Positions 552-62,613 of a DNA stretch of 64,000 bases are shown piece by piece. Every line of letters starts with the position of its first letter. Positions within the stretch are counted from its first letter, which is position 1. The notes beneath the pieces are model-generated. The model was not told the origin of the DNA and ran no database searches. It saw only the letters and a program-made list of their open reading frames with translations. Position numbers and translations under genes: made by a program. Source of the stretch: Chrysomallon squamiferum (Eukaryota > Animalia > Mollusca); contig CM022671.1 in the NCBI GenBank assembly GCA_012295275.1, positions 7,688,001 through 7,752,000 on the forward strand. Reading direction: 5' to 3'.

Positions 552-785
552 GAGGAGGACAAGAAGATGCGTAGCTATGCCGTAATACCGCCGATGATGT
601 TGGATGCTCGACAGAGGAAGATGCGTTTCCTCAACAACAATGGCTTGATCGAGGATCCCATGGAGCAGTACAAACTAGTGCAGCAGATTAACAAGTGGAC
701 AGATCAGGAGAAACAGATATTCAAAGAAAAACATCTACAGCATCCCAAAAATTTTGTCCTTATTGCTCAGTACTTGCCCAAAAAG
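552..785 (+). CDS. NCOR: NCoR exon: DAD / SANT1 N-part
   Basis: tttcacag acceptor, EEDKKMRSYAVIPPMM...WTDQEKQIF...PKNFVLIAQYLPKK, donor GTACGA. Confidence 0.95.
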
Positions 786-1188
786 GTACGAATCTCATCA
801 CCAGTGCAAGAAATTCAAAGAAATTAAAGATTATTTTGTAGTTTATTTTAAATATTATGTTTTCTTTGGTTTGGTTGTTGTTGGGTTTTTACCCAATTGT
901 CAGGCAGTTTTTGTTATATGGGTGTTGTTTGATTAAAATTGTTATTGTAAATACTCTTATTTTATGATTATTATTATTTTATTATCTGTTTTTGTATATA
1001 TTTTTTATTAAAGTTTATTTTCTTAGTGTTTATGTGTGTGTTTATTATTTTATTATATATTTATTTATTTACCATCAAGTTTCTAGTTATTATAAAACTT
1101 TAAGTATTGTTTATCATGTTATTTATTTATCATTATCTTGTTATCTATTATACTAACATCATGTATTTATTTGTGTTTTTTCTATCAG

Positions 1189-1299
1189 TCTGTACCCGAC
1201 TGTGTTCAGTTTTACTACCTCAACAAGAAGAATGAAAACTACAAACAGCTGCTGAGAAAACAGAGTATGAAGAGAAAGAGAACAATGCAGAAAACACAG
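1189..1299 (+). CDS. NCOR: NCoR exon: SANT1 C-part
   Basis: SVPDCVQFYYLNKKNENYKQLLRK; acceptor tctatcag, donor GTGTGA; 37 codons, phase 0-0. Confidence 0.95.
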
Positions 1300-1577
1300 G
1301 TGTGATTAAAACTCTATTGATAATATCCAGTTTACCTTCAAATAGTTTATCTCTCCATTGTAATTATAATTTTTTTTATTAATACAGTTGTTGTTTTAAA
1401 AATATAGGTGTATAGTTATTAAATAATAATAATAATATTAATAAAAAAACATGTTAATACAAATTTTAAATATTTAAAATAAGAAAGAAAACATTTTAAA
1501 ATTTTTTTTTTTTTTAAAGTAAATGTGCAGTTCATGAAGATTAGTATTTTACAAAACTAATGTAGTATTTCCTTCAG

Positions 1578-1672
1578 GCTCAGACTCAATCCCAGCCACA
1601 GCCACCCACTCCTTTGAAGGAGGAGCCAGGAGTCGAACCTGATCCAGAAAAGGAGGATGTCAGCAGTTCAGT
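1578..1672 (+). CDS. NCOR: NCoR exon: Q/P/E-rich linker
   Basis: ccttcag acceptor, open frame AQTQSQPQPPTPLKEEPG..., donor GTATGT, phase 0-2. Confidence 0.85.
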
Positions 1673-2232
1673 GTATGTACTTTCTTTGTGTGTATTTTTC
1701 TGTTTTTGTCACAAAAATATTTATTGTTCAGTGTCTTAAAAAAAAAAAAAAAAAAATAGAAGAATGAGGTTTCTTAAATATGTAGTTACACTGTAATGAA
1801 AATAAATGTTAGAAATTAGTATTTCAGCCTAATTTTCTCCCAAGCTGTTAAATTATCCTTTGTAATGTGTAACCCTCCATTTACCAAAATTCGTCATCTA
1901 TACAAAGTTTTTGTTCAGTTTATTTGTCCAGCAATATAAAAGTGTTCAAATAAATTAAATAACTGTTACAAGTGAGTTGGTTATTATTTACAGTACAAGG
2001 CTTTGGGGAATTGAGATAGGTGACTAATTAAGATACAGATATATACACTTGTATTAATGTAAACAGCAGTAAAAAGTGTAACTTGTGCAGCTTTATTAAA
2101 ATTAAATTTGTTTTGCCCAGTCTGTCACACGTAGTAATAATAGACATAGAAACTAGTTTGTAGAAGGAGAGAGAAAAAAAAAGTCTTGTTTCAAAATTAC
2201 AAGTGTGTATGTTTTTGATTTCTCTGTTTCAG

Positions 2233-2339
2233 TGTTAAAGAAGAGGAAGAAAAAGAAGTTCCTGCAGCAGGAGAGGAAGTTTCATCTGATGAAGAGATGC
2301 CACCAACTACTACAACAGCAGTTCCAGCATCTGAAGATG
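2233..2339 (+). CDS. NCOR: NCoR exon: acidic linker
   Basis: gtttcag acceptor, VKEEEEKEVPAAGEEVSSDEE..., donor GTGAGT, phase 2-1. Confidence 0.85.
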
Positions 2340-3071
2340 GTGAGTATCTGTTGCCTTGATTTAAAAAAATGGTATCATTAACATGAGAGTTAAAACAGAG
2401 TGTGGGCCTGCTAGCCTTGTATTATTATAATATCTAAAATGTTGTTTTTTGGGTTTTTTTCTTCCCTATCATGCTTGTACTACCAATATGTTTTGAACTT
2501 AATTTCCCAGGTCTCTTAAAATAACTGTTCATTTGACTTGTATCAAAATACATTATTCGCTAAAAATCTCTTGTCACTGTTCTTTATAACATAATCTAAG
2601 TTACCTTTTTTTAATCTTATTTTGTTAGATAGGGAGATAATATGTGTCCCCAGTAACAATAATCTGTGTTTATACTGAATCGTAAATCTTGTTATTATGT
2701 TACATGTGTTCAGTTATGAATTTTTATTGTCTGCTGTATTGAATGTTATGGGTGTATACAGTTTTCACATTGTAGAGATGATGTATTTGTTGTCTGGTGT
2801 GCAGTCATTAATATGTACTAGTCTTTCAATACTCATATGTAATTGAAAACTTTTCTCTTTTTTCTGCCTAATAAAATTTATAAATTATTTATTATTAGAA
2901 TTAATATACTTGTAGTTTATAAATAAAATTATAATAATCGTTTTGTTTTTATTGCACACTTAAAGTTGTTCAGCTGAAACAGTGGATTTATATATATTAT
3001 TGTTATTATTATAATCATCATTTTCTAACTGTCATCAAATTATTATTATATATATATTTTTTTTTTTTTAG

Positions 3072-3243
3072 GAGGTGTACATCAGTGTGCTGTATGTAAA
3101 ACACAACTAGAGAACTATGGAATGAGTCGACCTTTGACCCAGACTAACTGTGAACTGTATGGATTGACAGAGGGCGACCTCCGACCTGACATGAGAGTGT
3201 GCTCTAGCTGTCGATGTCGCTCAGTGCGAAGGCGATACACTTC
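3072..3243 (+). CDS. NCOR: NCoR exon: Cys-rich module 1 (CAVC...CSSC)
   Basis: Poly-T tag acceptor, open frame, donor GTAAGT, phase 1-2 consistent with neighbours. Confidence 0.9.
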
Positions 3244-3466
3244 GTAAGTTCACATTCATTTCATCACTGCCCGTTTGTTTGTTTTTTTCCATTCCTAAAA
3301 ATTACATCAGCACTTTCCACAGTTGGCAGTGTTTTTTTGCCTCTCCAGAGGATTGTGGAAATTTCCTAAAGGGATAAAAGAGACAGTTGTTTTAGAATTT
3401 CTCTGACAGTCAGTTGTTACGTTTTTAAATAACTTGTATTCAGTGTTCAATGTTTTCAATTACCAG

Positions 3467-3582
3467 ATGCCCTGTGCCGTCCTGCAAGACGCCAAAAAGA
3501 AAAGTTAAGAGACTGAGACCTTTCCCAGCAAAATGGGCAGAACTGACGGAGCAGGTGAAAGAGCCAATCATGAAAGAATTAC
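3467..3582 (+). CDS. NCOR: NCoR exon: Cys-rich module 2 N-part (CPVPSC...PFP..W)
   Basis: taccag acceptor, donor GTAAGT, phase 2-1; overlaps ORF 3450..3683. Confidence 0.9.
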
Positions 3583-4029
3583 GTAAGTTTTTATGTAACG
3601 TGTATATATATTTGTTTATTTATCAGTCTTTCCCTCTCTCCACACGCACGCACACATGCATATGCACGGTGTGTCTTCTCTAACTCTGTTAGTGAAAGAT
3701 ACAAATTCATTATTTTATTTGAAAATGTGTGGGCTTGGTATAATAATAATAATAACTGGACTTTTTAGACAGTAAACAAATACCCAAGATTTTGTAGAAT
3801 AACAAAAACAGATAACTGTCACCTTTTCTTTTTTAAACTAGTTTTCTCAAATTAATTATTATTTGTTTTTATTTTACATGTAGATACACACAAACAAACT
3901 TTAATTATCCGATTTCGTATTTGTGCGGAAGTAAAGCAGACATTTAAGCCCACAAAAAGTGGATTAACAACTTTTATTATTAAGTAATTATTTTGTGTTT
4001 ATATTTTATTTTATTTTTATTCCAATCAG

Positions 4030-4149
4030 AACTGACTGATGAAATCAACCGGTGTTGTTCTGCTTGTTTTAACCGAATTGCCAGGAAGCTTGGCAATCAC
4101 CCACAGACTAATGAACCATTAGTGGCACTAGTTCCTGAAAATACTGACG
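4030..4149 (+). CDS. NCOR: NCoR exon: Cys-rich module 2 C-part (CCSACF)
   Basis: aatcag acceptor, donor GTATGT, phase 1-1. Confidence 0.9.
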
Positions 4150-4336
4150 GTATGTTACATTACATAATCATTCTTCTTTATTAATTGAATGACCGTTTTT
4201 TGTAATTTAAGCATTTAAAAACACAAAATGAGAAACCCATAATACTTTAATTTAATAATCACAAAAATAGTCCTAATTAGCAAGGTTTTTTGACAATTTG
4301 AGCACAATTTGATTGTGTGTTGAGGTAGGTGTAAAA

Positions 4337-4369
<33 letters not shown>

Positions 4370-4695
4370 TCTGTAATTAGTGAATTAGAGTTAGGAGCGT
4401 GGAAGGAACTTTCTGTCATTTAAACAATGATATTAAACTTTATCATAAAAGATTTTTTTTTTTTGAATCAGCAATAAAAATATAATTATTGTTTTCATAA
4501 TTTGAATGTTAGTGATCATTATTTTTTATTTTTTTATTATTAGTATTATTTTTTTTTTTTAATTTGTAGGATTATCCAGATCATATGTTAATCTTCCCGA
4601 TAGTTAAGAATATTTCTGTTCAGCTTTTTAAATTTAATTATGAACATTATCAGCGCAGAAATGTTACATTACGAGATTTAATATATCAATTTCAG

Positions 4696-4749
4696 AAGTC
4701 GTAGAAACCTCTAGGTGGACAGAAGAAGAAATGGATATAGCAAAACAAG
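4696..4749 (+). CDS. NCOR: NCoR exon: SANT2 start
   Basis: VVETSRWTEEEMDIAKQG; tttcag acceptor, donor GTAATG. Confidence 0.93.
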
Positions 4750-5020
4750 GTAATGATTTTACTCAACCACAACAAAATAATAATAATAATAATAATAGAA
4801 AAAAAACAAAACAAAAAAGCCTCAGTCTTTGATATAGTGAAATTTAGCATGTGCTTTTTAACCTGTGAGAAACTGCATGTAAAAGATTTCTTATTGCTAA
4901 ACAGTAAGAGCTACCCATAAAATGGTTACATCAGCTTTTCATACTGTTCTTATTCTATATTCACATCTGACAAATAATAAATGGTTAATAAAGCACCCTT
5001 TTCACAGAGTAAAAGGCATG

Positions 5021-5185
5021 TACCAGTGAAACTTCTCAAAACCTAGTGAAAATTTGGTTTGGAGGATTATTTAGTTTACAGCAGTTTTAGGTTTCAGTGA
5101 CTGATAATTAAAAAAGCATGGAAATTGTTCAGTTTTGTGTGAATTCCAGTTTACTGTAGGTCAGATTTTGATATGTGTTAATGTA
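5021..5185. mobile_element. Highly decayed MITE-like remnant (CAGTGAAAC...TCAAAACC type end)
   Basis: Left end cagtgaaacttctcaaaacc, with internal and terminal degenerate complements (ggtttggagga, ttttaggtttcagtg, gattttgatatgtg). Confidence 0.3.
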
Positions 5186-5500
5186 TTGTATTCAAAGTAT
5201 TCACTGGAGTATATACTCAACAGTGAAAGATTTATCTGAATAAAAGAACAGATTTATGTAGAAAACTGTTTAAAAGAATATAAATATTTATGATTTATGA
5301 TGAGAAAGAAAAACGATAAATCATACTCCTACTTATTAACAGGAAATGTTAAAATAATGCAAGGAAACATAGAAGTGTAATATGCCCTTTTTAAATTATT
5401 TATGATTAATTGCAACTGTCTCTGCTGTTTCCAGTGTTTAAAATTTTTTTAAATAATAATAAAAATTAATACATGTGTTAAATTGTTGCTGTATGTTTAG

Positions 5501-5640
5501 GTCTGCGTGATCATGGACGTGACTGGGCTGCAATTGCTGGAGTTGTAGGGACTAAGACAGAAGCGCAGTGTAAAAACTTCTACTTCAACTACAAGAAAAA
5601 GTTTAACCTGGAAGCCATTCTGGAGGAGCACAAATCAAAG
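5501..5640 (+). CDS. NCOR: NCoR exon: SANT2
   Basis: [36 protein letters not shown]; donor GTCGGT. Confidence 0.96.
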
Positions 5641-6323
5641 GTCGGTCTTGTTTCACTCTTTAGTTATGTATGCTCAGTCTTGTGATTATTGATGCTTATG
5701 TTAATAAAAATGTTAAATATTTAAATTGAACTGGCAATGGTAACAGTAAGAATGTTAAAACACTGCTTCTTTTCAATGGTATTAATATTTAAAAATAAAA
5801 AAAAGAAGAAAAACAAAATAATAATGTTGTACTGAACATGATTTCTTTTGTCACTGTTTTATGTTGTTTCAGTTTGTTTGACACACTTACAATTCCAAAA
5901 TTTATAAAATTTATCTTGACTTTTGAACCAGAAATAATTTTTATTAAACAGATTAAATGTTATTTAAAACATTCATAAAAATAGGTCTGTTTTAAAAAAA
6001 AATTCAATTTATAACAATTAGTCCATTTATTTAACATCTTGAGGAGTTTGTTCTTGTTGGGGTTTTTCGGTGGGGGGCTTATCCTTTTTTTTTTTTCATA
6101 GAATAAATGTTTTCTTCATTTTTAAAATTCAAATAAAATAATAAAGATTATTCAGTTAGCAGTCAGTCATTATTTAATTTTAAAAGTGATGAACAAAATC
6201 TCAAATTTATTTTTAAACTAATGAAAATTAGAGAAGATACTTAAAATATAAAACAGAAAAAGACACAGAGAGAGAAGTGAAACAAGAAACATGTTAAATA
6301 TTATTTTGTTATTTGACTTACAG

Positions 6324-6480
6324 TCTGATAGAAGAACAGTTTCAGTTTCTGAAAGTATGGCATCTACCGTGACAGCTCCATCTGAGGAAGATGGATCATC
6401 AAGTGATGAGGACCACCCTGAGGACGATGATTCTGACACAGCCAGTGCTCCTAGCCCAACACCTTTACAGATTGAAGAAG
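6324..6480 (+). CDS. NCOR: NCoR exon: acidic/Ser-rich (DSDTASAPSP)
   Basis: ttacag acceptor, donor GTTTGT, phase 0-1; similar to NCoR SDTESAPSP. Confidence 0.9.
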
Positions 6481-6745
6481 GTTTGTTGTTTCATTAAAAA
6501 CTGAGGGAAAAAAAGAAAATAGAAAAAGAAAAAGAAAGGACAGGAAAAGAAGAACAAACATAAAGGATAAAATAATTTTTTTTTAAATAATATTTCTATG
6601 CTAACAAAAAGAACTTACGATTAATTTTTGGTTGAGCTATTTATTCAAAAAAAATAATAATTTATTTTATTTATTTAATTTTAATAACAATTCATTTTAT
6701 AATTAAAAAAAAAATTAACTTCAAAAGTTTCTGTTTCAATTTTAG

Positions 6746-7432
6746 GTAATGATGCTGAAACTAAACAAGAATCTGTGCCAGCTCCCGAGGACACGGAAAT
6801 GGAACCCCCTGGTCCTACAACAGGACTGCCTCCTGGCAGTCTAGCTAAGAACAAACCTCTGAGTGCATCTAATGGCAGTCTGCGAAGTATTCCAGACAAT
6901 GACAGCAGTGCAACAATGAGTGCAGACGAGGGCCCCATGCCAGCTCCAAGCACCACAGCAATGCCACAGCAACAGAATGATGATAATTTAACTCCAGCAG
7001 CTGCTACTGGACCGGCTACCACTCCTCAGCAAAGTGAAATGTATGAGCAAAAAAGTCCTCGTCCCACTTCAACTCCCGGCACCCCAGGAAGCTTGCCCCC
7101 GAGTGGATCCCCATACAGTCGACTTAGTCCGAGTCTCAGTGGGGGTAAGGGTCCCAGCCCTGGGGCTGTGTCAGGAATACGGCCTCCTAGTCGTGAAATC
7201 AGAGAATTGCTTCCCACTGGTAGTATGAAATCTATGTCTCCATTTAACCAGTCTCCTCGACCACCTAGCAGTAATTCTGATGGAGGTCAAGGAATCATTG
7301 CATCCCAGTTGTATGGTCAAGCAGATAAGAAGCAGCTTCAGCAGCAGCAGCAGCAGCAGATAGGAAAACATCCCTGTGTTAGAGATCTGATCCATTCAGC
7401 AATTGAGAAAAATCTTGAACACAATGGAAGCA
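6746..7432 (+). CDS. NCOR: NCoR exon: DSSATMSADE motif, poly-Q, CoRNR-like VRDLIHSAIEKNL
   Basis: DNDSSATMSADE resembles NCoR DNDSSATCSADE; ttttag acceptor, donor GTGAGT, phase 1-1. Confidence 0.93.
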
Positions 7433-7698
7433 GTGAGTTTTGAATATAATTTAAGGAAGTAAAATAAAAATTTCAACGTTATCTTCTGTGACCATATAAA
7501 ACATTAAATCTGTAGCAAGGTAAACCTGTAACAGTGAAGTTTAAAGTTTCAGTAAAAGCAATGTCAATCTATTTTTCACATTACTTTTTGACATATTAAA
7601 CAAAAATTAAAACAGTATTTATTATATAAAACAGTTTATGCTGTTTTTCTAATATATGAAAAAGAAATCAAAGCAGTTTGATACTTTTTTATTTTTAG

Positions 7699-10509
7699 GA
7701 CCACCATCTGCTGAGAACATGTCTGTCCAGCAATCACCTGCAGGATCTGCAGCAAACCAGGCCATTCCTCAGGATCTGAGGAAAGAGAAGAGAGAGGTTC
7801 TTCCCCAGCCCATGGTGGGTAGCCAGAGAAGCTTGCCACCTTATGGAATGGTAACAGATCCCAGAGAAGACCTGTCTCGCCGCCCTTTGGAGTTTGTTGA
7901 TAAAGGTGCCCATGGTTACAAAGGAGATCCCCATGACTTCACTCCACACTCGAATCTGTACAGACCTGACAGAGTTCAAACAGGTCCCCCTCTTGTCCCT
8001 CCCCCAGCTCATGCACACCACACATCATCAGTACACCAGCCAGAGGGAGTTCTGCCTCTGAAAACAGGCACCCCTGATAGTCAGGACAAATCAATGCTAT
8101 ATCCACCAGATCACTCACGTTCTTTATCACCTGCAGTTCGTGGAGGCCAGCATGGCTCCAATTCTCCATACTCTGCTGGAGTCCATATGTCATCTGTAGA
8201 GCAAGTGTCCAGAACTCCATTTCCACCCCCACCACCACTAATTAATGATTCAAAGACTCCACCCAAGCTAGCAAGATCATCTCCCACTGCCCACCGACTT
8301 CCCACTGGATCAATTACACATGGGACTCCAGTCAGTCATCATGGAGGAGTTTCTCCACTGGGGAATCCAGTAAGCAGTTCTTCAGGTCAGAGAAGACTGG
8401 AGGCTGTTTCCCGGCAGTCAACACCACCATCAGCTGCCCAGAGAATGGAAGGTTCCATTACTAAAGGAACTCCTATGAACCGGGAAGGAGGCATGGGTCG
8501 AGCTAATCCTGTGCTCCAAGGAATGATGGTGGATCCTGCTGCAATGGGAAGAGGTCCTCAGATGATGTACGAACAAGGATTTAGACCTGGTGTGCCTCCT
8601 TCAAATTATGAAAGAGGAGTGGAGATTCCAAAGAATCCACAAAGTGGTTACTACTCCAATGTTCAGTTTCCATACCAGGAGCAGCCTATTCCATACAGTT
8701 CAAGAGCTACCATCACAAATGACTTTTTCACAGCAAAACAGATGCCTAGGAAATCGCCTGTGGCTCAAGAGAAGGAAGGACGTTTATCTCCAAGAGGAAG
8801 GGAGGGAACCCCAAGAGGAGGTTATCCAGGAGCTATGGATCCAAGAATGAGCCATCCACAGATGGTGCAGGCTTACAATACTCCACAAGGAATAGTTTAT
8901 ATGCCTCCTCCTTCAGCAGCAGACAGAGGGAAAAGCTCGCCTATGCCAAGAGGAACTCCATCTCCCAGAGATGAAAAAGGAGGAATTTGGCAAATGGGCC
9001 ACCCTCCTCATCAACCTACCAGCACACCAAGCAGCATACCAGTTGACCATCATCCACCTCCCAGGCCCAGCATTGTCATGGGAACTGGAAAACCTAGTCA
9101 AATGGCAGAACCAATGATGTCAGTTAAAGTTGATCCACAGATGCCAGACAGCACGAGCATTCAGCAGCATCAGGCCATTTCCCCGCGGCAGTCAGATCAC
9201 AGCAGCCTGATGGTGCACCAGGATCCCAATCGCCAGCGCTTGTCTCCCAGCCAGGGCATGAGGCGATCCTACAGACCTGATCAGAGTGAGGCCAGCAGTG
9301 AAAGAGAACGTATGCAGCAGATGCAGGGAGGTTGGGGTCAGCCTATTCCTGGTCACCATAAGGACCAGTCCCAGGCTGGAAGGCAGTATGAAATGCACCC
9401 TGGAGCCATGGCTGAGCACAATCGTCGCAGTGAGAGAGAACGCATGTCTATGGCAAAGAATTTACCATATCCGTCAAAGGATGGACGATTAGTACGTGAC
9501 ATGTATGGAGCCCCTCACCCAAATGAGAGAAATATAAGAGGTTCAGAGATGCCCACTTCATCAGAAATCTCTTCACGTCTTATTACCGATCCAGCATATG
9601 TAAGACAGAAGATAGGAGAAAATCCTAATTCATCTGTAATCATGTCTGGTGCTTTCCAGAAAGACCCTTCTAGTGCTCCTGCAGGTAATCAGCCCAGGGC
9701 AAGTTTAACAGCAGCCACTCTGATTGATGCCATCATTACCCATGAGATTAATCAGACTAATCCTGATGACAAAAAAGGTGAGAAAAGATCAGGTTCCAAC
9801 TCCCAGTCACCATTAAGCAGAGAGTTTCAGAAAGGACTGTCAGAGGCTCCTCCAAATGAAGGACGATCCACAACACCGATCAGTTCATCGGTAGGAAAGT
9901 TCAACAAGGTTCGCAAATACTACAGTGAGGGCAACGTTCCCAGACATGAGGTGGATATGGAAAGAAGCCCAATAATGCCCTGCTCTATGCCCAGCGTCAC
10001 TTCACAGGATCACACCCAGATGTCTGTGGTTCACAGCAGCATGCATCCTCAGATGATGCATCCAGGTCAAGGAATGATGCCAGTACACGCACAGTTTCCC
10101 AATCAGATGCCACCCCACAGTCAGAGTTACTCAGCTAGCTCAAGTCTCCCTCAGTCTGTAGTCCATGGTCAGTGCAGTCCACAAGGAATGGGTGACCCCA
10201 GCAGTCACAGCCACATGTATCCTAACAATCAGGATCAGATGTATCCTGGCAGTATTTCACAGGGTCAAGCTCGAAGTGCTAACAACCAAATGCAGAACAG
10301 ACCAGACAGTCAAGATTCAGGACAGCCAGGTATGCAGGTACCCACAAGTGCCCCCAGCAAAGAGGGTGGGATTACACTGGGTGAACACATTGATGCAATC
10401 ATCATAAATGATTATCACAGCAAAAAGAAGTCGACTGCAATGGGATCAGAATCGTTTCAGAGAGGAACTCTAATGAGTCAGATCAATGAGAGTTCTGGAC
10501 CTCCAACAC
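7699..10509 (+). CDS. NCOR: NCoR giant exon (2,811 nt): GSI motifs, ITS-like motif, two CoRNR boxes
   Basis: Lies within ORF 7656..10538. GSITHGTP 8307-8330, GSITKGTP 8451-8474, RATITNDFFTAKQM 8703-8744, LTAATLIDAIITHEI 9705-9749, ITLGEHIDAIIINDY 10371-10415; donor GTGAGT. Confidence 0.95.
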
Positions 10510-11234
10510 GTGAGTGTTTAATTAGTTTCTTTTATTAAAGTAGTTTGTCCTGGATGCCAGTATTTTGATGATTTCATAATTCCATCTGTGTTACTTGGTT
10601 TTTATTTTTTATTTTTTATTATTATTATTTTTTTTTATATTATTTTTTATTATTATTTTTTTTTTTTTTCATGACATTTTGAACATCTTTCTTTTATTAA
10701 AGTAGTTAGACCTGGATTTAGGTATGCCAGTATTCTACAAATTTCCTAATATAACTCTGTGTTACATTCCTTATTAAATATTTTGAACATTTTATTTATT
10801 TTATTTGTTTTTGTTAATGTAGTTAGTCCTGTACTTAAGTGTTCCAGTATTTTGCAGATTCCTATTTTCATTGTTACTTTGTTTTTATAGATATTCTGAA
10901 TATACTCTTTACTTCTTTTTGTCTTATAATATCGCTTTGATATTTTATTGTTTAATTCTTTTGAACATAAACACAAATTTGTATATATATATATATATAT
11001 ACACACACATACACATACAGAGATATACATTTCATCAAAATACATTTATGATTTAAAAACAAGGTTTATCATTACATGCACATTACTTATTTAAAATGCT
11101 ATGACAAAAATATCAAGATTATAAAAAAATTAAAAAAAAATTAAAAAAATGTAAATAAGACTTTCAAAATACACAGATCTTTTCTGTTTTAATTTCTAAA
11201 TATTTAATTAATTTATTTATTTATGGATGGTTAG

Positions 11235-11407
11235 AACCCTCCACAACAGTTACAGAAAGTCAGTCCATACTGTCCAGGCTGACTCCTCCAATAAGTCAGA
11301 CCTCTCCAAAGGATGTTGTTGGATCATCATCTGACAGCCAGAGGCCACGAAGTCATTCAGCTAATGTGTATGACATGTACCAGTGGAAGAAACGTGCTCA
11401 GCATCAG
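11235..11407 (+). CDS. NCOR: NCoR exon (PSTTVTESQSILSRL...WKKRAQHQ)
   Basis: Open frame, phase 1-0 bridging its neighbours, donor GTGAGC. Not in the ORF track because it is under 60 aa. Confidence 0.85.
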
Positions 11408-11988
11408 GTGAGCTGATAGGTTCTTAAACATCTTAGAAGTTTTCGTTTATCTAATTTTGATAGTACAGCTACTCCCCTATTTGCATATGATGTCTTCTCT
11501 GGCCTTAGCACTGTTGCAGAAAAGAAAGAGAAAAAAAAAAAAAGATAAATAAAAATCATGGTTCACTCACTGATGGGAGAAATAAGCAAATGTTAGGTAA
11601 TATTATTTTATAAACAAATACCAGTCAATTGTCCATTTTGTGTCATGTTCGGTCAGTCAGAATGAAACTAAGTTGTAAATTGGGGACTGAATATCAATAT
11701 TATATAGGTATCAACAAGTCATTTTTATAATAGATAACTGCCAACAGTTTATAAAAACTAGCTATCAACAATTCATTTTTCTTTATTTCATTTTTTGTTA
11801 CTTGTTTTTTTTTTTTCTTTTTTTTCTTTTCTTTTTTTTTTTTTTTTTTTTTTGTTTGTTACATAATGTGTTAAAATTTCATTAATAAAAATCACTATTG
11901 CAAATTATCATTGTTATTATAATTATTATTATTATTATTATTATTTAAATTTGACCCTTCTCTCTCTCTCTCTCTCTCTCTACTTCAG

Positions 11989-12169
11989 CATGAGATGATG
12001 GATCAGCAGTTGTCTGGGTCTGGTGTTCAGGAAGGCATGCATCCTCACTCGAGAGCGGACACAGGTCGGTCAGACAGTGTGCATGTTTCTGACACTCATA
12101 GCCAGTGTTATTCTGACGATCAGGCTGCACCTCACCTTGGTGATGTTATTGAGCCCATTTCACCTCCAG
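11989..12169 (+). CDS. NCOR: NCoR exon containing EPISPP motif
   Basis: (CT)n tract plus cttcag acceptor. EPISPP also occurs in vertebrate NCoR1. Phase-1 donor GTAGAC matches the last exon; an alternative phase-1 donor GTCGGT lies at 12065. Confidence 0.82.
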
Positions 12170-12409
12170 GTAGACAATCTGCCACATATCTGCAGGTGTT
12201 CTAATCTTTCTTCCCTATTCTAGTTGGTTGCTTGCAGCTTCTTATTTTATTTTATTTGTTGTGGGGTTGTTGGTATTTTTTTTTTTTTTTTTTTTATTAT
12301 TATTATTATTTTTTTTTTTTTTTTTTTGGTGTGTGCGTGTGTGGTTTTATCTTGTAGCATATGCAGCTTGCTTTACACATTTTTTAAGTCTGTAGTATTA
12401 TTGTTGTTC

Positions 12410-12444
<35 letters not shown>

Positions 12445-12606
12445 TAATCTCTTTTTAATTATGATTAATAATTATTATATATATATTTTTTGTTTTAATT
12501 ATATATATATTTTTTATTTTTAATTATTGTATATATATTTTTTTTAATTTTTTTTTTTTGTGGATGTGTCTTTGTTGTTTTTTTTAATTATTATTAAGAT
12601 GACTTT

Positions 12607-12645
<39 letters not shown>

Positions 12646-12944
12646 TTTAGTACCTGCTCTTGCATGGGTAATTTATTCATTCCTCTTGCTGCCATATATA
12701 ATATTTTAAACCTGCTTATGCAGTTCCTGGCTGATTTATTTGTATTTGTCCACCTGTTTCAGTTTGTTTATTTTTTATTTTTTATTTATTTTTTATTTTT
12801 TATTATTGCCCTCAGCTTTATGTTTAGTTATATGAGTGCTTTTGCACTAAAACTCATTGTGCAGTTTGAGAACATTCACTGTTTAAAAACATTTACATTG
12901 TACAACTCTTGCTACATGGCCAGACTCTTCATTATATTTGACAG

Positions 12945-13215
12945 TTTGCAGCATGGCTGTAGTGAAATGTTGTATACACATAAGTCAGATACACATTTAG
13001 TTTTATTTTGAACATCTGTATTAAAAGACTTTTAGATAGAAAATGGACTGAACAAGAATATGAATAATTTGTTTTATGGCTGTACATGAATAAATCAGAT
13101 ACATACATATTTTAGTTTGAACATCTGTGTCTGATTTATATAAACTTTAAAAGAGAAAATGAATTGAATGTGTCTTGCAGCAGTTTTGCACTATGGCTGC
13201 ACTGGAATAGTGTGC
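12945..13215. repeat. Diverged ~120-bp tandem duplication
   Basis: atggctgta...tcagataca...tttgaacatctgt...agaaaatg.a.tgaa occurs twice, plus a partial third copy. Confidence 0.6.
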
Positions 13216-14096
13216 ATTAATACATAAAAGCATTCAGTTAATTTTCTCTGTACAGCAGATTCTGATTTTTTTTTTAAAATGGTGAATTCTTTTTTTTTTT
13301 TCTTTTTTTTTCCAATTAGTCAGCAAAGGATTGTTGTCACCTAACTGCCACAGTAACATTTTCATAAAACAAAATAATTACATTTCATATCAGTACAGTG
13401 GCATATGATAATAAACTTTTGGATCTAAGAACTCCTATTAAAACTGTTGTATGAAAAAACAACAAAAAACATCAACATTTATGACAATCCAACATTTTTA
13501 ACCACAAAAGGTTAACAACATTATTCTATTTATTTTTTAATTACTAACAGTTGACTGTTATAATCATTCTTAAACTGCTATTTTTTTACACTTCACATTT
13601 TTATTTTATATTTCTGTTCTATTTAATAACAACAGAACTAGTTCTCACCAATTCTTTTAATACTAATTTTCATTTGCACTGCTAATAGCTCCACTAGTCT
13701 CTTCCATTCTATCTCTTTCTCTTATTGTGCTGTCTCGTGTTTGTTGGGTCTTTACCTACAAATACACTAACACATTTAAACTTTTGATTCTTTTTTAATT
13801 TTTTACTCAGATACAAAAATGTGTGTGTGTGTGTGTGTGTGTGTGTGCTTGTGCGTGCTTGTGCGTGTGTTTGTGAAATATGTTAAATAATGTTAAACTA
13901 AGAATATATTCTCTGTTGGGTGTTATAACAGTGGTAAAATTATAAATAAATTAATATTTATCTACATCAGTATAAATATGATATCCTTAAATGACACTAA
14001 TAATTACTACAGTTTTACAGCTTTTCAAAGTGCTTTTGTGTGCATGTGTGTTTGTTTATTTAAGTCAAATTATTCATTTTTCTGCTTTGTCTTAAA

Positions 14097-14319
14097 TTAA
14101 CCCTATGAACTGTGAGCTACTGGTTTGTCATAAGCTACAGAGTTGACATCTCATATCCTACATTAAGAAGATGAATCAAACAGGCATAATGATTGTGCTG
14201 TGATTACTGCCTTCATATACATAATTAATCTTAACCTTGATTCCAGACTAACCAGTCCTGTAGAATGTAAGAAAATAAGGAACTCTAAGTTTACTCGTAC
14301 TATGGGCTCAAAGGGTTAA
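14097..14319. mobile_element. Decayed non-autonomous piggyBac-like MITE with TTAA target duplication
   Basis: TTAA|CCCTATGAAC at 14097 and GCTCAAAGGG|TTAA ending at 14319; termini are 8/10 inverted-complementary; no ORF. Confidence 0.6.
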
Positions 14320-15184
14320 TAAGTAAAAGCAGTTGGCAGCGTTAGGTTGGCAAATGGCATGTCACGTTTACCTGGAGAAAACATACCAGTCACTTTTTAA
14401 AAAGTACATGCTTCTCTTTATCATCTTTTTATTTATTATGGAATGTATATTATGGAGAAAATGTTCAGGTAAAAGACATCAAAATTTGTTCACAAGCATG
14501 TACATGAATGTATGCATGCATCCATGTGCACAACATACACACACACATACACACATACAAGAATACAAGTTTGCAAGCACAAATCTGATGTAATTATATA
14601 AATTCATGTCACTTCTCTATATATCAGGCACAATGTTGTATTTTTGGAAATTATTTACACTTTGTAAACAGTAATGAACACTTACTTTCACTGGATGAAT
14701 TAAAAGTTTGCATTTCATCAGTGATGTAATGAGATCTCTTTTTAATTTTGTAATAATCTCAGAAATGAGAGATAAAATTAAGAGAAGCATGTTCTGTTTT
14801 TGTTCATCTGTTTATTTGCATGATTGTGCTATATGTGCATGTATAAATATGCTTAAACATTATTTTTTGGTTACAAGTGAATATGAAAGAAAGGTTCAAA
14901 AAGGAAAGAAAAACATTCGAAATAATGATTTATAATTAAAAAGCTGCAAAAATAGATTTAGTCTTTAGGAACACCTGCTTTATTCAGGAGTATCATATCT
15001 AAAGTGTTTCTATGATGAAACAAACAAAAATACTGAATACAACCATTATACTGCAGTTTGATTGTTTTGTTTACAGACAGACACCATACTTTGCTAATAA
15101 TAAAGCAAGGCAATAATATATTAAGGATATGCATTGAAACTGTCATTTTCCTTTCTTTCTTGGCATCATGTTTTGATAGAAATG

Positions 15185-15215
<31 letters not shown>

Positions 15216-15905
15216 ACCTGCAGAATTGATGCATCTTTCAGATTTTAAATTTGTCTGTATGTAATGATTTTGTCAAAGAAAGGAAAATGGAAGCATCCCT
15301 GCATTCTTCAATGGGCTCATTGTATTATTGTCATGCTATATATTAATGCCAAAGGTTGGTGTCTAGAAACAAACAAAACAGTTTTTTAGCAGTATATGTA
15401 ATGTGTTTAGATTGTTTGTTTTTAATCATCATAGAAACATATTAATGAAATTTGTTATTAGTGTTTATGTTCCATTATGGAATTAGATTTCAACTCGGTC
15501 AGATAAATTGTAAAATCATTAGGATATTCTAATTTTCCTTACCCATTTATTTCTTTAATGATCTGATAAATTCTCTGTCTATCCATACAGTCAAGTCTTC
15601 CCTTATCATATTTCAAAAAAGTTTCAAAGTTTACAGATAGTTATCCATAATTTAAAGAACTGTTACTCTGAATTTCAAAAAGACAGTCAATCTATAATCA
15701 TTTTTTATTATTAAAAAAAAAAAAAAAAAGGGTAGGATGAGTGACTGAGCATAACAAAACAAAACTTAATAGACACCAGTGTTCAAAAGTTTAAAAATTT
15801 TATATAACATCAAAACATTTTGGTACTACTTCTCTCAACCTTCTCAGTTGTTAAGAGATTATTTTCTTTGTTCTGAAATAATTTTGATTGTTTGTATCTT
15901 TGTAG

Positions 15906-17311
15906 GGCAAGCTGACAGCACTGGTCTAGTTCTACCCTCAGCCGAAGGATCCAGTCTTAAGACATCATTACAGCACACAAATTTACATGAATATATGAAA
16001 AGTAAAATAGAGACTGCCTTGAGAGATGAAATGCCTAGCAGTCAGTCTGAAATGCAGAAAAAAGGTCAGCCAGAAACTCAGCTCCTTGGCATGAGACTAC
16101 AGAGTCCAGTGGATTCTTCTCAAATGTCACATGCCAACCAGCCACTGGCGAAACATCAGGTGGGACATGATGAGGTGCAGCTTCAGACTCAAAGAGAGTC
16201 ACAAGAAAATGAGCCTCAGTCATCATCAGTCAGACATCATTTATTGGAAGGACAAAACATGGATGATCACAGCGATGTTAAACAAGCAGAAGCAGACTCT
16301 AAACCATCTCAGGGAGAAGGTGATGTGATGAAGGAAATGACAGATGATCATTCTCAGAAAGGAAGTCAGCAAGGCTCAAAAAGCAAAACATCAGCAGCTG
16401 AATCATCAGACCAGTCTCTTGCCTCCACACAACAGGCAGCCAGCAAAAAACGTGCCAACAGTCGACAGGCAACTAAGTTAGCAGCTTCCAGAGACCATGG
16501 ACGAGAAATGCACAAGTCGTCGGGTAAAAAGTGTCTGAAGTCAGAGTATGATTTCCCAGACAGTCCTGATGAAGAGTGTCTTGGGAAGACTCCAAGCAGC
16601 TACATGGCTCTCTCTGGAACTGTTCGCAGTCCTCGACGTGGTCATGTTGATAGCTCAGACAGTAAAACAACATCTGTGGCAGCATCAGAATCAGCAAACA
16701 AGGCAGCAGACACTCCAACAGTGGACTCTGGTTCACTGGACTCTGACAGTGTGAGCTCACAGTCTAAAGATCACAATAAAACTGAATCACTTGATATTGC
16801 AGAACGTCCTCAGTCAATGGAACATGGAAAGACCAGGTTTGGTACTCGAACTAGTAATGAAGATGTGGATGATTCTGTGGACAGTACACGTTCGGATCCT
16901 GCAGCAGCTGAATCAGGTGACAAGATTGACAGTTCCACTGATGTTTCTGTCAGTGTTCCATCAGGCGAATCTGCCAGAATGTCAAAACCATCTTCACCAA
17001 GAATTCACAGCAGCAGTCCACGTTTGGGAGCAGATATGTATGAGGCAGCAGACGTTAGTTCCCAGAGTCAAGCCGACAGTGTGAGTTCCGGGGCATACGT
17101 ACAACAGTCTCGCAGCCCTCGATCTTCTGACTACAGCCGGCCACATTCTAGCTTGGACGTTCCCAAGAGTTCTGCTTATTCTTACCCTGCTTCCCAGCCT
17201 GTTGTGTCTAGCATGTTACAGGAATCGGTTCATTCTGTCATATCTCGAGATAAAGAATCTGCTCCTTGTTTATCGTCACAGTATGAAATGCTCTCAGATG
17301 ATGAGGATTAA
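15906..17311 (+). CDS. NCOR: NCoR terminal coding exon with LSD motif
   Basis: tttgtag acceptor; degenerate CoRNR-like LHEYMKSKIETALR; ends APCLSSQYEMLSDDED-TAA (SPEN/SHARP-binding LSD motif). Confidence 0.94.
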
Positions 17312-26433: not shown

Positions 26434-28991
26434 GTTTGTGTGACATTAACCAAGATTGCATCCGTGTAATTATAGCATAGTTGTTAATATCCTGCATCCA
26501 GCTTTGGTTATACGTTTTTGCGTTTATAATCGTTGCATTGTCTGAAACACACATTATTTGTGTTTTATATCCATTTTCTTGTCTGAATCGTATATGTTTT
26601 ATTTGTAATCTGTACAATTCTTGTAGAGATCATAAATAGATACGTTTATTTCAAAATAATTATAATACACTAATAAATTATAGTAGATATGTTTTGTGCT
26701 TATGTCCATTGTATTATAAGGTTTGTTTATACCTGTACTTTATTAAATAGATCATAATAGTTAAATTTTGTCGAAATTTGAAAATAATGAGAACGAATCA
26801 TTTGTAAAAATGCAGAACTGTTCAGTTATTATATAGATCATAATAGATAAAATTAAAAAAATGTATTTATTTCAAAGTAATGATAAGAAATATCTGAATC
26901 CATCTTAAATTACAGCAGATAGGTTTATATCAACAGTTACAAATATCAGAATGACCGATTATGTTTATTATTTATACCTAGACAATTATAAAGTATGTAT
27001 CTATACATTTAAACATAAAGACGTAGATTCAAATGATACTTGATAGTTACCTTTTAGGACTTTGATACTTTACTTTTTTTCGTGGGTTTAACTTTAATAA
27101 TCATTATCCACTGTAACCAGCTTTCAGGCTGAAAAGTTTGTCTAATGTGCTGCTGTTACGTAATTCTTTGAACCATGCCATCATTTGCTGTATGTAAACT
27201 TAGCAGAAATGTAAATCATTTGTAACAGCTGTTTGTATTCTTATTTATGTGGCCTTGTTGGACTGGGAATGAAACGAAATCAATATTAAAAACACTGATT
27301 AAGTAACAAAGGCTTATTCAGCAACTATATGTATAATATATATATAATAACACATACATACACACACATACATATACATTTCACATCACATGATGAATAT
27401 TTTATAATAGTCATTTCCTATTTCCTCAAAATAATCTAATCTTTACAAATGATGTATTAATAACCATTTCTGTACATTAACAATTTTACCAAACCAACAG
27501 AGATTATGTAATAATTCAAAACCATTTCTCCGACTTGCTGAAAAAAATTGGCCATTCTTCTAAATCACCAAATTTAAAGTAAAATAAATTATTAAATGGC
27601 GTGTATATGTTTGAATGAAACTAGATTGATAAGTGCTGTTCTTATAAAGATAAATTTGAAAGTAATTTTGTCCAAACTGAAAAAAAAACCACTGAATCAT
27701 CACTTGTGTCAGAATTGAGTCAAATTCAGTTAAAATTTTTTGTTATATTCAGCCTTCGTTGTTTTGTTTGTTTATTTTATTTTTTTTGATTTTTTGATTT
27801 TTTTTTTTTTTTTTTTGTCTTTCTCTCTTTTTTAATTTATAACAACAATGCTAATGTTAACCACTGTAATAAATTATTCATTTGGCTGTCATGTCATGGA
27901 GAAATTTATTTTCTGGCTTGCTTCCAGAATGTTCAAGTCTGTATTTTATGGACACATTGATTTGCCAGTGTTCAAGATATACCATTCAAATTTTGCCATG
28001 GCGCCAGTGGTAAGTATCATGGTTGCCCTCCATACTTGCCTTGGTGCCTTAAAATGTGTCCAAGGCAACAAAACCCTGTGACGTCAGGAGTGCAGGCAAA
28101 CGTCATGAGTTGCAGCTGTATTGGATAATTTATGTGATCTGTCATTGAACAGTGTTGCTGTTTTGTTAATTTGAAATCTGTTACCTTTATTTGTAAACTA
28201 GAAAAGCCATGGTGGGATAGAAAATAACCCATAAAGAGAAGACAGTTAAGTGTGAAGAGCCGTCTGGTTTTTTTTAGGTTCAAGTGATTCAAATAAACAT
28301 AGGTTTGATTAGTTATTAACTATGTGACCTGCAGCAAGGTCAGTGACTTCCATTAAAACTTGACAGAAATTAAGTTGCCTTTGTGCTTCCACATCGAAGG
28401 AGATGTTTGCCCTAACAATTCTAATAAAACATTCAAACCAAAAAAAAAAAAAGGAGAAAAAATAAAATAAAATTCATGTCCTGGTTCTTTATTTTAATAA
28501 CAGCTTTATTTTGACATACTTGTCTTTAAGAGTGTTCTGTGGACTGGTCAGTGCTGTGTTACAGATTTATTTGGTTACAGGATCAACCCTCCTTGATTTT
28601 TTCCATTGTGTTCCATGCCAGCCTGTTCGCACAGACATGCCATGCATATTAATTTTCAAATTTACATGACAGTGCACATAAATGATCCTTTGCCATTTAT
28701 GTTAAAATGCTCTAGGTATATATTTTTTTTAAATTAAAATTTTTTTTTTATGATATGTGTTGAAAATATACACAGTGTTTGGCATCTGTTTGATATGGAA
28801 TATTAATTTCTGCTATGGTTATTACTGGTTGAGTTAAATGCTTCAGTGGCTGGTTTAATCAAAAATCTTTAAAATATTATATTAAATAAAAATTAAAAAA
28901 CTCATGATTTGGTCAGGTTTCCACTATGAAAGCAATCACAGGCTCTTAATGAACCCAAATCTGACGCTAAAATTGACTGTCTGATATTTAT

Positions 28992-29870
<879 letters not shown>

Positions 29871-30609
29871 TGCCTGCTGCTCTACCATCTCCTCCAGTTT
29901 CATGCGCTGATCATGTTCAAACTGCAGAACTTTCTGCCACCTTTTCCCATGAGTCTGTGTAAAGTCCTTGTACTCAGCACATGCCTGGAATCACAGAAAT
30001 CATTCATTTAATTTAATGTTTTAAATGTATGGTTGTGTGACATATAGATAATGATAGATAAAATGTGTATTGACATTACAGACCAGACTTGTTTTTGATT
30101 AGCATCATGTGTATGATATGAAAGCTTATTTTAATTATTAATTTTAATCTTACAGTTAATAATAAATAAAATATTTTTCACACAATTAACTTCTACTTTT
30201 TTGATCAGCAGAAAAGTACTGATGTATACACACCTACCCATAGACACCAAAACATAAAACAATATAAACAAGTTCTGAGTTCAAACACACACACACACAC
30301 CACACATATTTATTGTGTATAACGTCCATATTAAAAGTTATGTGTTTAATCATAAGCCATTGATGTTTCTTTATAATGTTTTAATCTAGACATTTATGAC
30401 TATTTACTGTTGAAAGCAGGGAACATATAATCATGTTTTAAGTCTTTTTGTGTGTTCCCAGTCCAAACAGAGCCCAGACACTGCTTTGTTGACAGCTACA
30501 CTATTGGTTTTGAATTTGTTTTGTTAAATATTTAATCTTTTAATAACTGCTAAGATTGTAAGAATCTGTTTAAGTAGTTACTGGAACCATAACCTGTTTG
30601 TAAAAATGT

Positions 30610-59469: not shown

Positions 59470-61339
59470 GTAATGTTTTTATTCTTGTTGTTTTTCACTT
59501 CTCCTTTTTAATTTTTTTCACACACCCTCCCCTTTTAAGCAGTAATATGTAAATTTTGCCATGTCCACAACTAAGTATTGCTTTACATATTTTGAAATTA
59601 CTTGTGTATGTTGACGTTGATATGAGGCAGTTGGTGGACAGGAGAGGAGAAGGAATGTGGTGCAGCAGAGGAGTTGCCTCCATTACCGTGTAACTCACGT
59701 GGCCACTTATTCCTCCTTTACAGGACTCCCGATTCAGGAGAGTGAATTCTTCAGCAGACTGATTGCATCTTTTCGTGTTTGAAAGAATCTCTGCCATTGT
59801 TTGTTGCTATTTTAACAGCTGACACGACAGCCTTTTCTGCCTCGAGAATGCATTGAACAGGGGTGGGTAAGTTTATGCTTGCAACCACATACATGCTGAA
59901 ACTTCCATTAAAACAATGCTGTTGGGATCAGAAGCAGGAAGGTGTGAGGCGTTAATGTTGAAACAATACACTATCTCATTTAAATGAGTGTAAAGTTTCA
60001 GCACTGAGATTGCAAATACCAGAAAATACTGTGTATAATTGGTTAAAATGAATGCTTGCTTCTTAGCTCATTATTCCCTTGCAAAATGTTTATTTTTTCT
60101 TTTTCCTCTCCCCTAATTTGCTGACTATTATGTATTGTGGAACTGTGTAGCTTTAGAACTGGGTAATGTTGTCAACATTAAACAATTTTGAGAAAACGGT
60201 GAACTGATGAATCAAGCATTTCATTTTAACTTGGAATAATTTAGCCCTTTTTTTTTTCAGGACATAATGGTTGCACATATCATCCAATGTTATAGTTAAA
60301 ATCTCTAATCAGTGTATTTCTGAATGATCTTTTTCATTTGTTAAATTCAAAGTCTTCTATTTGAATGCAGTTTGTTACTAGATCAAAAAATGTTAAAGTT
60401 CTAAATATTTTTTAGTGGAATAAAGTAATGGGCATTTTGTTGGAAAGTTATCAATTGGGAGTACTTTTTACAAGTGGTCATAAAATTAGTTACAGCTCTG
60501 TCCATCAAAAAGAAAATTTAATATTTGAATATTTTGGTGTTTGTAGAATTTTATAAAATTATTTTTTTAGTTTTGCCTACTCAGTGAATTTTGTCAAACT
60601 TTAAATGAGTCTTAACAGTTGATAACATTTTAGTACTGATGTGGAACACCGCATTCTTTTAATTAGTGTTACAAATAATGTCTTATTAGTGTAACTGTCA
60701 AACTGACTGAAATCATTTACACACGTTTCTGGAAAACAGGTCAGCTGTTGGAACTAATAAATTATATGCGTACTATAAGACAGTTATTTTTTGATGAAGT
60801 ATAAATCTACATCAATCACTAGTTTTGAATATACATAGCAACAAAAATCTTTGGCCAGTGACTATTCTGGTAGCTAAACTAAAAACTAATCTTTTGACAA
60901 CCAGTCATTAAAAAATGGGTGCCAAGAGGACACAATTGGAAAACACATCTAGATCATTTCTTGATTTTTTTTAAGTTCAATTTATTTTTTCTCCACTTTT
61001 CTGCCTGACATGAGATTAAAACTAAGTTATTTTATCTTATTTAGTTACCTCCAACATAAGTTCAAGAGATAAAGTACAAAAATCAATTCAGATAACAAAT
61101 TTTATTTTGATAAAAAAATTATCTACATCAGCTAAACATTTTAGCTGAAAATCAGTCTGATCCATTAAAACATCTAATTATTAATCAAGTACAAACTAGC
61201 AACTTTTTTCTTCCACAATTATTTTGTAACAAATACGGCTAAAGTGGGGGGGTTAAAAAGAATTAAGTAAAATAAATAAATAAATACAGGGTTAGTATAG
61301 TACTTTTGCTAAAGCCTGCACTGGGCTTTTTCTTTACAG

Positions 61340-61465
61340 AACGGTGCTTCAGGTGTAACCGCTTCGGTCACATTGCACGTGATTGCAAGAGTGGCCCTGA
61401 GCGCTGCTATAAATGTAATGAACTTGGTCACATTGCTAAGGACTGTGAAAAGTCTATTGACTCAG
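61340..61465 (+). CDS. CNBP: CNBP coding exon 2: knuckles 2-3
   Basis: CFRCNRFGHIARDC, CYKCNELGHIAKDC; tttacag acceptor, donor GTAATC. Confidence 0.95.
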
Positions 61466-62145
61466 GTAATCGCAGAAGAAAAAATGTAAAAGGGATTTTT
61501 ATTTTTATAAGTAGGATTTTTTTTTTTTTTTTTAATGTTTTTTTTCTAATTTTTTTTTTTAAATTTGTTAGAATTAGTTATTTTATTTTGAAGATCTTAG
61601 AATTAAAAATGAAATAAACATTTTTATTAGAGTAATTTTTTTATATATTTAAAAAAAAAATGTAATATCTTATTGTGTTTTATATAATTTCTTATAAACA
61701 AAGAATCACATAATCAAATAATTTTATGCAAGGTGCTTGAATAAAAGCACTTGTTAAACCATCCATATATATATATATACAAGGGTAAAATGAGAATATG
61801 TTCATTTAAGATGTGTGGTGTGATTTTGTTTGTTTTAAAGGAATCAGACTGATAAAAAGGTTTTTTGTTCTGACCTTTTGTTTCCAGTGTTGAAAATTTA
61901 GACTTTTTTTTTTTCCTATGATAACTTTTATTAAGTCTTATAATTTGTCCCCCACACCCACCAAAAAAGGAAAAAGTTGCATGTTTTATACATGGAATTT
62001 TTTATTATTTCTTCCAAAACACAGCATAGAATGTTTTAAATTAGTTACAATTTGATATTACTGTTTTGTTGCTATTTGGAACTGAGGCGTCATGACAAAA
62101 AAATAATACTGAAATTTGCTTTACACTGTTTTTCTTGTCTTGCAG

Positions 62146-62359
62146 GCGCTTGCTATAATTGTGGTCAGTCTGGCCATATATCTCGTGACTGTACTTCAGA
62201 GAGGTCAACAAACTGTTACAGATGTGGCGAACAAGGCCATCTGGCAAGAGACTGCCCAGACCCACCTAATGGCAGCAACGCCAAAAAATGTTACAACTGT
62301 GATGAATTTGGACACATCTCACGCGACTGTCCTGGAGGTTCAGACAAAACATGCTACAC
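62146..62359 (+). CDS. CNBP: CNBP coding exon 3: knuckles 4-6 and start of 7
   Basis: CYNCGQSGHISRDC, CYRCGEQGHLARDC, CYNCDEFGHISRDC; donor GTAAGT, phase 2. Confidence 0.95.
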
Positions 62360-62613
62360 GTAAGTAAAATGTCAACTCATTATTTAACATTTTCTCACAT
62401 CAAAAATCTGGAAACGATTCTAATTTGCTGCACTAATCGTTTATATTTGTATTGGATATATAATCAATAGGGTTGAGAAGCTCTACTAATTAAATTAAAT
62501 TGTTGGCCATGATTTCTTTCGCCGTTTATTCTCTTCATATTATGAAAGCTACTACTTGAAATCTGAAGAAAAGTTTAAAAAAAAATAATAATAATAATAC
62601 TTTTTATATATAG

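Follow-up and report, generated by a model that had tools for sequence, protein, structure and literature searches.

The window analysed here is a 64,000-nucleotide stretch of the Chrysomallon squamiferum genome (contig CM022671.1, positions 7,688,001 to 7,752,000 of the forward strand), and its first 17 kb are occupied, on the plus strand, by the 3' part of an orthologue of the NCoR/SMRT corepressor family. Between the two SANT domains of this protein (SANT1 and SANT2) lies a cysteine-rich region made of two modules, referred to below as the double module. It is a real and widespread domain whose fold class is known and whose host family is well studied; it is apparently undescribed, and its function can be proposed by inference.

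An NCoR/SMRT orthologue and its cysteine-rich exons

The window gene is an orthologue of the NCoR/SMRT corepressors. Its nearest named relative is a protein of the gastropod Gigantopelta aegis (P0013), with which it shares 13 tblastn blocks between 549 and 17308. A deacetylase-activation domain (DAD) with SANT1, followed by SANT2, is present in the order that defines the family, with Pfam Myb matches on both. Nine exons from 552 to 5640, joined at their AG/GT ends, give 383 codons with zero stops, and the joined frame reads SANT1, acidic linker, cysteine region and SANT2. The homologue P0002 matches the SMRT DAD (4A69) at E 5e-33 and the SMRT SANT2 (2LTP) at E 3e-22. The GPS2-interacting region was found in the homologues P0002 and P0074, and its expected location in the present gene is 5' of the window start. 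A C-terminal SHARP-binding motif is known for the family (PMC4554918).

The cysteine region, sited between SANT1 and SANT2, has the pattern C-x2-C-x34-C-x2-C, eleven residues, and C-x4-C-x41-C-x2-C. A first-pass annotation of this DNA had described two Cys4 modules in three in-phase exons, and the spacings are exactly those it gave. The three exons have AG/GT ends, share a single open frame with the exons of SANT1 and SANT2, and encode 127 of 135 residues identical to P0013 (tblastn). Together, they measure 408 nucleotides and are flanked on both sides by phase-1 introns, so that the unit could be dropped in frame. Additional Cys codons occur at 3149, 3215 and 4053. Lys and Arg outnumber Asp and Glu in both segments (9 vs 5 in module 1, 14 vs 6 in module 2).

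These exons are transcribed as part of the corepressor message, as the first-pass annotation presumed. In each of four RNA runs (one study), a single contig spans SANT1, the three exons and SANT2, and the joints 3243/3467, 3582/4030 and 4149/4696 are recorded as GT..AG. The joint 2339/3072 is hidden by a masked repeat (3039-3075); the contig leaves 3 letters between 2340 and 3076, a spacing consistent with this joint. No exon-skipping joint was seen in the contigs of these four runs, which lose rare forms. In a second study with a DNA-like contig set, nine differences fall in exons and eight of these leave the protein unchanged, where 23% synonymous changes would be expected (P ~6e-5, transitions not modelled). 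An annotation artefact or pseudo-exons are ruled out by the RNA joints, the conservation in homologues and the synonymous differences. The features of the window are collected in Table 1.

Table 1. Features of the window, with positions counted from its first letter
Feature	Position	Strand	Evidence and remarks
DAD/SANT1, two exons	552-785, 1189-1299	+	Pfam Myb match 552-785; 92% / 89% identity to P0013; spliced in RNA contigs
Acidic low-complexity linker upstream of module, two exons	1578-1672, 2233-2339	+	Open frame; RNA-contig joints; no tblastn match to P0013 at E 1e-3
Module 1 exon, C-x2-C-x34-C-x2-C	3072-3243	+	Cys codons 3086, 3095, 3200, 3209; predicted treble-clef finger ending in short basic helix; four Cys in 114/114 homologues; ZAD-like match
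Module 2 exon, first half	3467-3582	+	C-x4-C (3468, 3483), basic loop and strand, near-invariant Pro, helical insert; RNA joints
Module 2 exon, second half	4030-4149	+	C-x2-C (4056, 4065), basic terminal helix, short linker to SANT2; RNA joints
SANT2, two exons	4696-4749, 5501-5640	+	Pfam Myb match 5503-5640; 100% / 96% identity to P0013; RNA joints
Remainder of NCoR gene, long disordered C-terminal part, LSD-type acidic tail	6288..17308	+	Approximate exon edges; six tblastn blocks to P0013, 62-78% identity
Exons of oxysterol-binding-protein-like gene	26181-47058	+	PH domain and Oxysterol_BP matches
CA/CT-type simple repeat, ~1 kb	28930-30008		Yields long spurious open reading frames in three frames
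Exons with several CCHC zinc knuckles	61276-62360	+	Presumably CNBP-like

Conservation and fold of the double module

The column counts are based on 114 proteins that cover the full profile, out of 205 homologous proteins. All eight cysteines are retained in 113 of the 114, the exception being without the first Cys pair of module 2; the check on cysteine conservation in orthologues that the first-pass annotation had set thus came out in its favour. Median identity to P0013, in a set partly selected by the module, is 0.65 in SANT1 and 0.51 in SANT2, with 0.51 in module 1 and 0.60 in module 2 between them; by this comparison, the double module is conserved to the same degree as the SANT domains. 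After the cysteines, basic residues are the best kept (17 columns with at least 70% Lys or Arg, mean net charge +12), and the very basic character noted in the first-pass annotation, seen in both segments, fits nucleic-acid binding. The three extra Cys positions alternate with Ala, Phe, Val, Gly and Ile across homologues, which makes them more likely part of the core than ligands. Across 83 proteins, module 1 starts a median of 121 residues after SANT1, and module 2 ends a median of 12 residues before SANT2. Half of the short database proteins (34/68) stop at the position of the window's intron within module 2, an indirect sign that this intron is shared with homologues.

The pair also occurs outside NCoR. 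Four proteins (P0135, P0146, P0174 and P0240) carry three whole double-module copies each, and a fifth (P0192) carries one; in all five, module 1 is shorter, SANT domains are missing and a C-terminal stretch is conserved in common, and four of them, placed in a tree, fall outside the NCoR clade (99/99). In P0135, P0146, P0174 and P0192, no Pfam family rose above cut-off. Because the two modules recur together, also in these proteins, they appear to act as one domain that travels as a unit. A tandem origin from a single module is unsupported, though short motifs align by eye: the profile-profile score of 12.0 lies within column shuffles (10.2 +/- 2.3, maximum 17.5 of 100).

A separate observation concerns P0160, a mussel protein of 519 residues in a cluster with Mytilus californianus LOC127729181, which bears a lone module 2 at its end, preceded by a domain without a Pfam match. 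This module 2 groups weakly with mollusc NCoR modules, and a capture of NCoR exons by another gene is possible.

The spliced segment yields a confident predicted fold, as the first-pass annotation had anticipated; the double module is predicted to fold around two zinc ions, and we infer that it binds zinc. Pfam returned no meaningful family for the window exons (best CxC4, E 0.37) and none for the P0002 module (local library and precomputed annotation), 37 double modules or 49 module-2 sequences, while a sequence search of the PDB gave no match under E 0.08. The NinF family, which Pfam reported for 12 of the 37 double modules, was rejected, as the match rests on a CxxC fragment. Similarly, PF27579, found in many homologues, is not this module: frog NCoR1 proteins carry PF27579 and P0002 does not.

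In the model, module 1 is a treble clef with a knuckle Cys pair and a Cys pair at the helix start, the four invariant cysteines forming two C-x2-C pairs in a core with a strand pair and a short helix, as in ZAD. ZAD structures provide the four best structural rows for this module, and the next rows include ZZ, RING and Rab-effector fingers; the ZAD, FYVE, ZZ and ribosomal rows align to module 1 residues 1-54. The treble-clef, ZAD-like nature proposed earlier for module 1 is therefore supported. In comparison with the ZAD domains of Grauzone (1PZW), Serendipity-d (7POH), CG2712 (6FP5) and M1BP (7PO9), however, it is internal, without a C2H2 array, only 12-24% identical and strongly basic on its surface. 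ZAD dimerises via a long C-terminal amphipathic helix, residues 66-91 (26 residues) in CG2712 (PMC7913770), whereas the last helix of module 1 has 9 residues (44-52) in the model and runs straight into module 2. No zf-AD or C2H2 Pfam match was obtained for the window exons, P0002 or the 37 double modules. Module 1 shares the ZAD core fold but is not a ZAD member.

Module 2 had been described as a C4 variant of THAP, a claim that is not supported in that form. THAP ligands follow the spacing C-x2-4-C-x35-50-C-x2-X, and the conserved Trp of THAP1 is Trp36 (PMC2879526). In THAP this Trp stands about 10 residues after the Pro, and a Phe follows the last ligand. Module 2, with C-x4-C-x41-C-x2-C, has this spacing and the conserved Pro, which is present in 49/49 module-2 sequences and 112/114 full-length modules. 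Against a THAP identity, its fourth ligand is Cys in 114/114 and His in 0/114, the Phe of the FP motif is replaced by Leu in 83/114, and the Trp stands 3 residues after the Pro in 92/114 and is replaced by Leu in 18. Any Trp in columns 83-95 occurs in 6/114, and Phe follows the last Cys in 72/114. The Pfam THAP family (PF05485) gave no match among the 37 double-module and 49 module-2 sequences. THAP is a single N-terminal C2CH domain of 80-90 residues (PMC13631171), whereas module 2, compared with THAP1, P-element transposase (3KDE) and C. elegans CTBP-1, has about 60 residues, is internal and always paired with module 1, and combines a basic terminal helix with a displaced Trp and a Cys in place of the His. 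Judged by its sequence, module 2 would not be a THAP member, though it may descend from a THAP-like finger.

Distribution and evolutionary history

Searching with the module region, we obtained 48 long proteins, whose sources are molluscs, nemerteans, a polychaete, chelicerates, a myriapod, crustaceans, hemipterans, hemichordates and echinoderms. When 1.84 billion representatives were searched with a profile, 260 matches reached E <=0.001, and 150 of them were listed; organism names were looked up for 30 proteins, 29 of them among these 150. Among the matches listed, the named carriers added amphioxus, Anopheles, a sandfly, a moth, mites and ostracods, together with the nematodes Pristionchus, Toxocara, Steinernema and Ditylenchus. 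Carriers across so many invertebrate phyla rule out a mollusc-specific insertion.

A search with SANT1 only, made with a snail query that favours near relatives, retrieved 43 NCoR proteins. The module is present in 34/34 named invertebrates (one partial) and in 5/6 others; it is missing from 3/3 frog NCoR1 proteins, in agreement with the earlier statement that vertebrate NCoR lacks it. All three frog proteins have an acidic linker that is rich in Ala and Pro and holds 0-1 Cys. In 3/3 frogs, a terminal-helix matrix scores highest on a short basic motif of this linker; a vertebrate remnant of this helix is nevertheless unsupported, as 79-82 of 100 shuffles score equally high.

The tree was built from 54 module sequences, namely those of 48 proteins chosen mostly for having names and 6 extra copies. 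It groups amphioxus with the ambulacrarians (98/96), the four nematodes with one another (100/98), and the dipterans (100/99). Because the unit spans protostomes, ambulacrarians and amphioxus, yet is missing from the three frog NCoR1 proteins, the double module is best read as ancestral to bilaterians, vertically inherited and lost on the line to vertebrates, in a sampling without a named non-bilaterian, tunicate or fish sequence. The first-pass annotation had spoken of modules inserted between the SANT domains; this distribution is explained more simply by a loss on the line to vertebrates.

Two dipteran-type proteins (P0097 and P0099), placed beside mosquito and sandfly in the tree, retain the module and have no SANT2 directly behind it, a state that would be the mirror image of the vertebrate one. 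Drosophila SMRTER has been reported without SANT2 (PMC3590189), and the two proteins share this architecture. Three further sequences depart from the usual order: the spider Caerostris extrusa protein (P0060) is without most of module 2, P0112 is without the first Cys pair of module 2, and P0068 has SANT1 and neither the module nor SANT2. Each may reflect a mis-prediction, a splice form or a real loss.

Proposed function and comparison with known systems

We propose, with about even confidence, that the double module is a zinc-folded, basic grip on chromatin DNA with little sequence preference. The basic strand and the helices after each last Cys pair would contact the DNA backbone, as in treble-clef DNA binders. 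A transcription factor would recruit the complex first; the module, sitting between SANT1, which activates histone deacetylase 3 (HDAC3), and the histone-tail-reading SANT2, which binds unacetylated H4 (PMC3590189), would then keep both SANT domains on nucleosomes. Precedents in other histone deacetylase (HDAC) corepressors may be seen in the SAP30 finger (PMC2673417) and the GATA-type finger of MTA1 (PMC4244562). The phase-1 cassette would allow a clean loss, vertebrates having likely lost the module, and the fly-type lineage would have kept it and lost SANT2.

It is possible, if doubtful, that the module is instead a zinc-stabilised protein-interaction surface, serving ZAD-like self-association or acting as a dock for an acidic partner, for instance another subunit of the complex, a transcription factor or, on the nucleosome, the acidic patch. 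The ZAD structures at the head of the module 1 rows speak for this, dimerisation being the one evident function of ZAD (PMC7913770), as do the protein-binding ZZ, RING and Rab-effector fingers in the rows behind them and the role of NCoR proteins as scaffolds (PMC4554918). The ZAD dimer helix is, however, long, and its counterpart here is a 9-residue helix abutting module 2; moreover, the conserved Lys and Arg residues and the net charge of +12 disfavour self-association. A homodimer prediction with two copies and zinc scored 0.00 and gave no answer, which counts neither for nor against this explanation.

A bolder proposal, which we consider unlikely, is that the ancestral bilaterian NCoR was in part a transcription factor, its double-C4 domain finding its own DNA sites and being kept by most invertebrates and by the SANT2-less fly-type SMRTER. 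The vertebrate loss would then have left NCoR1/2 wholly reliant on recruiting factors, and the same double module, in three copies in unrelated proteins, would represent a new DNA-binding family. Decidedly unlikely, in our view, is the narrower idea of a sequence-specific domain in which module 2, a His-to-Cys descendant of THAP, reads bases by a two-stranded sheet and gives invertebrate NCoR its own targets. THAP1 contacts DNA in this way, its strands being separated by a loop-helix-loop (PMC2879526), and the predicted strand-helices-strand-helix order of module 2 resembles it; the THAP-type spacing and the invariant Pro, the basic residues at both strands (columns 72, 74 and 103) and the three unit copies in non-NCoR proteins, as common among DNA-binding repeats, point the same way. 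Set against these are the missing His, the changed FP motif, the displaced Trp, the lack of a Pfam THAP match and the single, N-terminal, longer format of THAP described above, and Su(H) and EcR are described as the recruiters of SMRTER (PMC3507286). We consider it very unlikely that the basic surface is a site for RNA or for a small acidic ligand, phosphoinositide or inositol phosphate, that tunes HDAC3 activity. In favour of this idea, the structural rows include FYVE and ribosomal treble clefs, the SAP30 finger binds phospholipids as well, more weakly than DNA (PMC2673417), and inositol tetrakisphosphate is used by SMRT SANT1-HDAC3; against it, the basic residues extend over about 110 residues of both modules with no single short motif, and the module lies a median of 121 residues from SANT1.

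Drawings of the NCoR/SMRT architecture are usually based on the vertebrate proteins and show two SANT domains in an otherwise disordered chain. Between these domains, most sampled invertebrates have a third, predicted folded unit, without Pfam annotation in the releases used. Our literature search, which covered main-text passages, listed no paper that describes such a domain in invertebrate NCoR, and the passages on vertebrate NCoR1/2, SMRTER and GEI-8 mention no zinc domain in these proteins. PMC3590189, PMC4554918 and bioRxiv 2020.03.09.983916 use the word "zinc" 0 times in their main texts; the supplements of the latter two, and Figure 1 of PMC3590189, which aligns tick, fly, amphioxus and nematode N-terminal regions, may show the cysteines. 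The element of 115 residues is precise and deletable, and its carriers include four nematode sequences besides those of mosquito, sandfly and fly type; neither Drosophila SMRTER nor C. elegans GEI-8 was among the sequences sampled. If the module binds DNA or nucleosomes, reaching chromatin solely via transcription factors would be peculiar to vertebrate NCoR, and losing the module would be a mark of vertebrate regulatory evolution.

Vertebrate NCoR1 and NCoR2 (SMRT), Drosophila SMRTER and C. elegans GEI-8 belong to the same family as the window gene, a family marked by a GPS2-binding region, two SANT domains and an LSD-type tail. Outside the family, the finger of SAP30/SAP30L in the Sin3 corepressor complex is likewise a zinc module with a conserved basic surface in an HDAC corepressor (PMC2673417). 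It differs in being a single CCCH finger on a separate small subunit, and no sequence or structure match to SAP30 appeared among the listings of the module searches; the SAP30 finger may be regarded as a functional analogue of the role proposed here. In RERE, an ELM2-SANT unit is followed by a GATA-type C4 finger. Similarly, MTA1-3 carry an HDAC-activating SANT and then a four-Cys GATA-type finger in the same chain (PMC4244562, for MTA1). GATA fingers have about 30 residues, whereas the NCoR modules are paired, with 34 and 41 residues between their Cys pairs.
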